This document shows positions 41,136 through 42,091 of a stretch of 64,000 nt of DNA, in pieces. The stretch lies in the IMG/VR virus record IMGVR_UViG_2681813318_000003, one strand, 5' to 3'. A model generated the notes under the pieces. The model searched no databases. It was not told the DNA's origin and was given only the letters and a program-made list of their open reading frames with translations. Position 1 is the stretch's first letter. Each line of letters starts with the position of its first letter. This DNA comes from a virus (taxonomy: Duplodnaviria > Heunggongvirae > Uroviricota > Caudoviricetes). The position numbers were made by a program, and so were the translations under genes.

Positions 41136-41552
41136 TCAGGAGGCGTGAAAGTTTTCTGCAACGTTTGAAAAATATTTTAGTAGCCTAGTATCTCTTGCAG
41201 ACATGCGAACATGAGCTGGAGTGACTAACCCCATCAGCAAATAACGACCGTTCTCCCACATATGCTCGGTATAGATCAGATAGTGATCTGAAGTTCGGTT
41301 GTAGTTTTCTTGCCTTACACTCCAGGTTAACTGGAAATGTAAATTTACGTGAATATGTTGGACGTTAGCGTCAACGGCAAACGGAGGAAAATCGAATGGC
41401 GCATCTCTACCAAGAAGATTGGACGGGTTGCCAGTTGATTTGTAGGTAATGAACTCAGTTTTGAGCTGATTTTCTAGATCAGGATAAACGGCAAAAGTAG
41501 GTTGAAAAAACTCTACCCATGTCTCTTGACTGTATTCAGCCGTTAATGCCAT
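41136..41552 (-). CDS. hypothetical protein
   Basis: 138 aa; overlaps the upstream gene by 10 nt. Confidence 0.45.
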   Translation of the reverse strand: MALTAEYSQETWVEFFQPTFAVYPDLENQLKTEFITYKSTGNPSNLLGRDAPFDFPPFAVDANVQHIHVNLHFQLTWSVRQENYNRTSDHYLIYTEHMWENGRYLLMGLVTPAHVRMSARDTRLLKYFSNVAENFHAS

Positions 41553-42091
41553 TTGACTGCAGCCTTGTTGCCTGTCGCCAATAGATGATTCATGGCAACG
41601 AGGTTTACGCCAGAGTCACGTACTACAGAGGTGCGTGTAATCTGGTCGATCAGATTTAGATAATTTTTGGCCGCAATACTGACCATTTTAATAGCTTTAA
41701 AGAAGGCAAACTCTACAGCGTTTTTGTCGTAAGACAAAATGACATCTTTTTCAGGTAACATCAAAACGAAAGATTCTGCGATTGCGGCTACATGAATCGT
41801 TTGATTTTTAATTTCTTCCGCTACATTGACAGCAGCAAAAAAATCAGTGTCAGCATAACGAGCAAGTTCAGCGCGGCTTGAGCGCAGTTCTGTCGCTAGC
41901 TCATTAAGAGCTGCTGTAAGATCGCTGATGTCGGTTTTGTTGACTCTAGCGCCCATCTCATAAACCCGCTCTACAATAGTGGGCTGGCACGCAACCGCTT
42001 TTGGTTGCGGCTGGATGCTGGCAAGAACCAGTGCCACTGCTGCCTGTAAATGCTGGATTTTAAATTTCACGATAGACTCCATAATCGTCAT
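41543..42091 (-). CDS. hypothetical protein
   Basis: 182-aa ORF. Confidence 0.45.
   Translation of the reverse strand: MTIMESIVKFKIQHLQAAVALVLASIQPQPKAVACQPTIVERVYEMGARVNKTDISDLTAALNELATELRSSRAELARYADTDFFAAVNVAEEIKNQTIHVAAIAESFVLMLPEKDVILSYDKNAVEFAFFKAIKMVSIAAKNYLNLIDQITRTSVVRDSGVNLVAMNHLLATGNKAAVKWH

Follow-up and report, generated by a model that had tools for sequence, protein, structure and literature searches.

A probable type II toxin-antitoxin operon, pairing a YafO-family toxin with an uncharacterised helical protein, in the cargo of an Escherichia SSU5-group phage-plasmid

Two overlapping genes carried by an Escherichia phage-plasmid of the SSU5 group probably constitute a type II toxin-antitoxin operon, which the element holds as cargo. 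The downstream gene, T, encodes a YafO-family toxin with a predicted RelE fold, a kind of toxin that is known and already annotated; the upstream gene, A, encodes an all-helical protein of a small, uncharacterised family that, judged from its constant association with T, is most likely the antidote to T. All positions given below refer to the window, by which we mean the whole stretch of 64,000 nucleotides that was analysed. The sequence-only reading of this DNA had picked out two open reading frames (ORFs) of 182 and 138 aa that overlap by 10 nt in the interval between a recombinase and a glutaredoxin gene, and the ORF listing agrees with that description:

41136..41552, minus strand: toxin gene T, 138 aa from an ATG; YafO family, RelE/HigB-like predicted fold
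41543..42070, minus strand: putative antitoxin gene A, 175 aa from the GTG at 42070; all-helical by prediction, uncharacterised family
41543..42091, minus strand: longest A ORF, 182 aa, from the ATG at 42091
41543..41552, minus strand: A/T overlap of 10 nt, ATGGCATTAA, with the T start inside the A end; read directly from the sequence
39710-40813: tyrosine recombinase gene flanking the pair, PF00589
42219-42467: glutaredoxin gene flanking the pair, PF00462
42192..42213, minus strand: intrinsic terminator of the glutaredoxin gene, found by scanning for terminators (9-bp stem with 5 GC pairs, and a T-run)

Read along the minus strand, ATGGCATTAA places the ATG of T 7 nt ahead of the TAA of A, an arrangement that suggests translational coupling of T to A through the overlap. 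The identical 10-nt register is found in all of the other 29 loci that carry an intact T, and it is kept even in the most distant pair, whose A and T proteins are only 30% and 43% identical, respectively, to those of the window. Because homologues of both ORFs are conserved and the overlap recurs with them, we regard A and T as real genes and not as chance ORFs. The terminator 3' of the glutaredoxin gene marks the upstream edge of the pair, which is therefore a separate transcription unit. The locus thus has the generic layout of a type II module: two small co-oriented genes that overlap, a candidate promoter of their own (described below) and a terminator upstream.

T is readily placed in a family. 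It passes the Pfam YafO_toxin model PF13957 (E=1.7e-20; 73.5 bits, the gathering threshold being 25), with residues 36-136 aligning to profile positions 2-100 of 101, and it matches phrog_1651; near-identical plasmid copies are already labelled "YafO family toxin" by NCBI. It shares 29% identity with E. coli K-12 YafO over 113 residues and scores far under the equivalog cut-off of NCBIfam NF007377 (53.7 versus 153 bits), so T is a member of the family and not an ortholog-level equivalent of YafO. Profile search separates two YafO clades: a canonical one of 132-134 aa, which includes E. coli K-12 YafO with its partner YafN, and the 138-aa clade of T, which occurs on phage-plasmids, on other plasmids and on a few chromosomes. 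Every invariant or near-invariant position of a 36-protein YafO alignment covering both clades is present in T, the conserved family residues being, in T numbering, F34, K38, G48, D50, H68, L92, Y94, P112, A132, E133 and F135. A confident AF2 model of T matches HigB2, HigB1, RelE, YoeB and YafQ, and it has the RelE-like alpha/beta fold that goes with membership of the RelE/ParE superfamily. On profile and model evidence, then, T is a YafO-family toxin with a predicted RelE fold.

The sequence-only reading had recognised no motif in either ORF. This was right for the upstream ORF, which has no Pfam match, and wrong for the 138-aa ORF, which bears a clear YafO_toxin domain; the profile searches and structure prediction that it had proposed as checks led from T to PF13957 and a RelE/HigB-type fold, and from A to no named family and a helical structure. 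Searches with A returned nothing above noise in Pfam, PHROGs, NCBIfam, PADLOC or the sequences of the PDB. HTH, RHH and AbrB domains were sought in A and none was detected, nor was any other known antitoxin domain, and BLASTP gave no alignment of A with YafN. The AF2 model of A has seven helices (pLDDT 82), and fold searches with this model retrieved generic helical bundles only. A is also longer than most type II antitoxins.

The A family is small. It comprises 39 clusters, all unnamed, among 5.8 billion proteins, and the clusters with a stated organism are all from Enterobacterales; a profile search with A found only 24 relatives among 1.84 billion representatives, none of them annotated, and NCBI labels the homologues of A as "hypothetical protein" only. 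One hit of the profile search, P0046, was set aside as a repeat-protein artefact. A is remotely related to phrog_8416, the family of gp17 of phage HK639 (hhalign probability 81%, E 1e-5), and the family member P0045 matches the same phrog with an E-value of 7e-4.

The A protein is probably 175 aa long, starting at the GTG at 42070, rather than 182 aa, since this GTG is the only start position conserved family-wide and has a GGAG 6 nt upstream of it. A Shine-Dalgarno sequence is kept at the matching position in Erwinia (GGGAGG), in Klebsiella and in the metagenomic homologue L014. In the Erwinia homologue the start codon preceded by GGGAGG is a TTG, in the Klebsiella homologue an in-frame TAA stands immediately ahead of the ATG, and the Pseudescherichia homologue is without the first ATG. 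The elements upstream of A are these:

42077..42080, minus strand: Shine-Dalgarno GGAG, 6 nt before the GTG at 42070
42128..42133, minus strand: TATAGT, proposed from its conservation as the -10 box of a promoter belonging to the module
about 42150-42155, minus strand: weak -35 region ATGCAA, partner of TATAGT
42105..42119, minus strand: palindrome GTAGTA-gaa-TACTAC just 3' of the -10 box, a putative operator or 5'-UTR element

Of 20 distinct upstream sequences drawn from unrelated genomic contexts, 19 have TATAGT unchanged, the exception being L014, the most distant homologue; the promoter scan did not call this box because the -35 region falls below threshold. Most relatives keep the palindrome, which overlaps the likely transcription start of the module, as GTAGTAnAAT(G/A)CTAC; in the loci of Klebsiella and Erwinia it is degenerate. 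LexA/SOS control of the kind known for yafNO was considered for the module and rejected, as its promoter contains no LexA box; the sole box precedes the recombinase gene.

The pair is inherited strictly as a unit. A and T recur in unrelated contexts together with their 10-nt overlap and a promoter/5'UTR stretch of about 90 bp: on phage-plasmids of Escherichia, Citrobacter and Klebsiella, on plasmids of Enterobacter, Pantoea and Kluyvera, and on the chromosomes of Pseudescherichia and Erwinia. The upstream ~90 bp are conserved across sites as different as the recombinase-glutaredoxin slot, an exbBD-adjacent site in Pseudescherichia and the Erwinia chromosome. Among PLSDB plasmids T is found on 250 and A on 243, and in evenly spaced samples of both rankings a "hypothetical protein" and a "YafO family toxin" stand together almost always; the co-occurrence count is biased by the use of A as bait in gathering most loci, which the T-baited plasmid sample corrects only in part. 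Pairwise identity of A tracks that of T (correlation r=0.93), and in 81% of the comparisons it is A that has diverged more. That overlap, promoter and both genes are kept in pairs down to 30% (A) and 43% (T) identity points to purifying selection on the unit.

The window's own pair departs from this trend when set against E. coli pTB212 (L003), to which A is 94% and T only 85% identical; the inversion suggests recombination inside the module between lineages. A 64-aa helical ORF follows T directly in the phage-plasmids of Citrobacter (L004 3779-3973, minus strand) and Klebsiella (L034 4444-4638, plus strand), the two copies being 45% identical. We considered it as a third gene of the module and regard it as optional and not part of the core, for neither the window nor any other fetched locus, chromosomal or not, contains it.

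Decay of the pair is asymmetric. Among the 29 E. coli genomes with a match, 14 match the A gene only, and in the two such loci that were inspected (L002 and L033) T has been lost and A is kept in a C-terminally shortened form. Two Pseudescherichia loci (L022 and L024) have no T match; in L024, which was inspected, an in-frame scar fuses ...GNKAA from A to EDFHASAP, with which T ends. In [Erwinia] mediterraneensis frameshifts affect both A and T. Those copies of T that were found without A are all truncated: residues 1-32 are missing from L037/L038, and H114 and H138 are no more than fragments. The pair thus travels as a unit and A persists without T, and not the reverse, in a sample that is partly biased by its A bait. 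A toxin that is freely lost and an antitoxin that is never lost beside an intact toxin are what the toxin-antitoxin model predicts, and the pattern of decay therefore fits a toxin-antitoxin pair. The T remnant of L037/L038, from Enterobacter hormaechei (3995-4471), has no stop codon of its own (156 aa as called) and no A upstream, and its neighbours are an integrase gene and, in a defence island, GmrSD, HEPN RiboL-PSP and AbiJ genes.

These observations support the guess, made earlier from the letters alone, that the two ORFs form a toxin-antitoxin pair: T belongs to the YafO family and has a RelE-type model, and A comes first in the operon, overlaps T, co-occurs with it, diverges faster and is retained after deletion of T. 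Homology to replication or structural proteins, which had been named as grounds for giving the guess up, was found for neither gene. The same guess had allowed for either a toxin-antitoxin or a defence pair; the first half is supported, whereas for the second there is no match to a PADLOC defence-system model.

In the mechanism that we propose, a single promoter with its -10 box TATAGT at 42128-42133 would drive both genes. A (175 aa, helical) would be translated first, and T (138 aa) would follow by coupling through the 10-nt overlap. As a YafO-family endoribonuclease with a RelE fold, T would be toxic by cutting mRNA and so arresting translation, as E. coli YafO does. A would bind T directly, sequester it and neutralise it, and the module may in addition be autoregulated. 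Were the element lost or the synthesis of A stopped, A, presumably the more labile of the two proteins, would disappear and T would halt growth, so that the net effect would be stabilisation of a low-copy plasmid prophage by post-segregational killing, or addiction; an additional role in abortive infection is possible. E. coli YafO has been described as a ribosome-associated mRNA interferase (PMC7781912), and its dependence on the ribosome is disputed (PMC8546651). Leplae et al. reported that toxins of the YafO superfamily pair with antitoxins other than Phd (PMC3141249).

The window belongs to an SSU5-group phage-plasmid of Escherichia. Its stretch from 30 to 50 kb is about 97% identical to plasmids of ~110 kb in E. 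fergusonii and E. coli, whose genes include dnaE, cobT, a ligase gene and genes for tRNAs. The window and the Escherichia phages Cyrano and CMS-2020a have only the flanks of the pair in common. On the recombinase side of the pair we find the following sites:

40913..40943, unstranded: likely recombinase core site ATGATTCCATAC-ATAGTAG-GTATGGAATCAT, perfect 12-bp inverted arms with a 7-bp spacer
40947-40957: third half-site near the core site
40842-40857: perfect LexA-box core CTGTATAAGTAAACAG (CTGT-N8-ACAG), just upstream of the recombinase start codon

The core site precedes the tyrosine recombinase gene by about 100 bp and looks like a lox/dif-type core site of that enzyme; its arms are invariant and its spacer varies among six phage-plasmids. 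Homology of the backbone ends exactly at the right arm, GTATGGAATCAT, where the variable slot that holds A and T begins; 40913-40943 thus marks the downstream edge of the slot and is possibly where exchanged cargo enters. The LexA-box core CTGTATAAGTAAACAG is kept in all six aligned phage-plasmids, which suggests SOS control of the recombinase.

Other cargo has been found in and near this slot. In CMS-2020a (L039 883-1911) the glutaredoxin-recombinase interval is occupied by a 202-aa phrog_13546 protein, a gap of 9 nt and a 136-aa PF13957 toxin of the YafO type, which is 28% identical to T; since this is a different YafO-type pair, the slot cycles through alternative YafO-type pairs. The cargo beside the module and the glutaredoxin gene in related phage-plasmids (L011 1063-1499; L034 744-1914) includes Sequestin (PF21825), Acb2/Tad1-hairpin (PF24729) and colicin M (PF14859) genes, a neighbourhood of counter-defence and competition. 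In the window, a 445-aa ORF on the plus strand (42682-44019), flanked by the glutaredoxin operon and the tRNA cluster, matches phrog_18168 with an E-value of 3e-175; it has no Pfam domain and is absent from the corresponding region of Cyrano.

It is possible, though we think it distinctly less probable than addiction, that the same toxin-antitoxin chemistry serves mainly in abortive infection or superinfection defence and not in plasmid stabilisation: an infecting phage that shuts off host expression would cause the release of T, and the host of the resident phage-plasmid would be protected. The module's place in a variable cargo slot is consistent with such a role, as are the Acb2/Tad1-hairpin, Sequestin and colicin M genes beside it in related phage-plasmids, the different YafO-type pair that takes its place in CMS-2020a, the occurrence of YafO-type genes as morons in temperate phages (HK639, for example) and in Pseudomonas phages, and the decayed copy that sits in the Enterobacter island among GmrSD, HEPN and AbiJ genes. 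However, no family in PADLOC-DB 2.0 matches A or T at E <= 0.1, and the pair is also common on large plasmids that are not phages, some of them conjugative, where addiction is the usual reading.

The N-terminus of A is a feature that sits uneasily with an antitoxin. From the conserved start the protein reads MKFKIQHLQAAVALVLASIQPQPKAVA/CQP, and in all 21 of the family members examined, including those only ~25-30% identical, a Lys-containing n-region is followed by 11-12 uniformly hydrophobic residues. A small-x-small site follows near residue 25-28 in 20 of the 21; P0040 is the one without a candidate cleavage site. By our own heuristic, with which the pattern was scored, this start looks like a Sec signal peptide, with its positive n-region, hydrophobic stretch and AXA-like site. 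An amphipathic helix is not what this segment forms, given its low hydrophobic moment, and the AF2 model of A has a low-confidence linker after helix 1. A conserved Cys in A invited a lipoprotein reading, which we rejected because the residues before it (K at -4; N or E at -2 in homologues) misfit the lipobox as given by the PROSITE pattern. A cleaved and exported A could not neutralise a cytoplasmic RNase, and the signal-peptide-like start therefore counts against an antitoxin role. An N-terminus of this signal-peptide-like kind would be odd for an antitoxin, and the toxin-antitoxin model leaves it unexplained.

One way to accommodate this start, which we consider unlikely, is that A is exported or associated with the membrane. 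Sec export, in place of Lon or Clp, would then shorten the lifetime of A, or A would act as an envelope-side sensor, such that the YafO-type RNase would be released when secretion or the membrane is disturbed, as it might be by an infecting phage. The n-region, hydrophobic stretch and small-x-small site, the low hydrophobic moment and the linker behind helix 1 all speak for export, but the three obvious signal peptides of the window are more hydrophobic than this segment (Kyte-Doolittle 2.5-2.7 versus 1.8-2.7; Eisenberg 0.79-0.85 versus 0.65). The segment is also better conserved than any other part of A (column conservation 0.85, with the invariant LQAAVALV..S.QPQ), unlike ordinary cleaved signal peptides, and neither the remote relative HK639 gp17 nor the partner protein of the CMS-2020a slot has a comparable hydrophobic start. 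That the pair no longer works as a toxin-antitoxin module, T being catalytically dead or domesticated and the genes persisting by hitch-hiking only, is very improbable: frequent loss or truncation of the toxin in relatives and the low NCBIfam equivalog score would fit, but the T of the window is full length with all conserved family positions kept, and the conservation of genes, overlap and promoter down to the most distant pair indicates purifying selection.

If A and T are a toxin-antitoxin pair, as we favour, the novelty lies in A. Literature searches found no paper that characterises the A-T pair or the partner family of A. Genome papers list YafO toxins of plasmids and prophages with no partner antitoxin (PMC8151138, PMC10449497), and the data set of Leplae et al. 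2011 contains no YafO toxins on plasmids or phages (PMC3141249). Recognising A as a constant YafO partner would fill an annotation gap on ~250 enterobacterial plasmids of PLSDB, would give the SSU5-group phage-plasmids a candidate addiction or defence module, and would offer a tractable pair in which to study how a YafO-type RNase may be neutralised by a protein without the usual antitoxin domains. The gain is incremental, since the mix-and-match pairing of toxins with alternative antitoxins is an established theme (PMC3141249). Should A instead prove to be exported or membrane-associated, the pair would represent a new coupling of a type II toxin to the status of the cell envelope, and the A family together with phrog_8416 would be a new antitoxin superfamily for plasmid and prophage YafO toxins that seem to lack a partner.

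Among known systems the closest in toxin is YafN-YafO of E. coli K-12, a type II system encoded in the dinB operon. The two modules share a toxin of the same family, PF13957, and an order in which the partner gene comes first and is tightly linked to the toxin gene. They differ in that A has no detectable similarity to YafN, which is of the Phd/YefM type, and is 175 aa long compared with 97 aa; in that T falls in the separate 138-aa clade with its N-terminal extension; and in that A-T appears to have its own promoter on a mobile element, whereas yafNO lies in the SOS-controlled dinB operon. Because a Phd-type antitoxin is absent, the A-T module is not a YafN-YafO system. HigB2 of Vibrio cholerae, HigB1 of M. 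tuberculosis and other mRNA interferases of the RelE superfamily match the predicted fold of T, with identities to T of only 7-12%; the HigB antitoxins are HTH proteins of the HigA type, which A does not resemble. A functional analogy, and no more than that, links A-T to phd-doc of the phage-plasmid P1, which likewise consists of two genes with the antitoxin first, is carried by a plasmid prophage and kills cells losing the plasmid; Doc is a Fic kinase, and the protein families of the two modules are unrelated.

The nearest counterparts in organisation are themselves uncharacterised. Both gp17/gp18 of HK639 and the pair in the slot of CMS-2020a have, like A-T, a helical protein of ~190-200 aa encoded directly upstream of a phrog_1651/PF13957 toxin, and the two toxins are only ~28-30% identical to T. 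The CMS-2020a partner (phrog_13546) has no detectable homology to A. In HK639 (L040 920-1938) gp17, a phrog_8416 protein of 190 aa, and gp18, of the YafO family, form a moron between a lipoprotein gene and genes for minor tail proteins. The remote sequence relationship between HK639 gp17 and A points to a wider, as yet unnamed superfamily of YafO partners in temperate phages.
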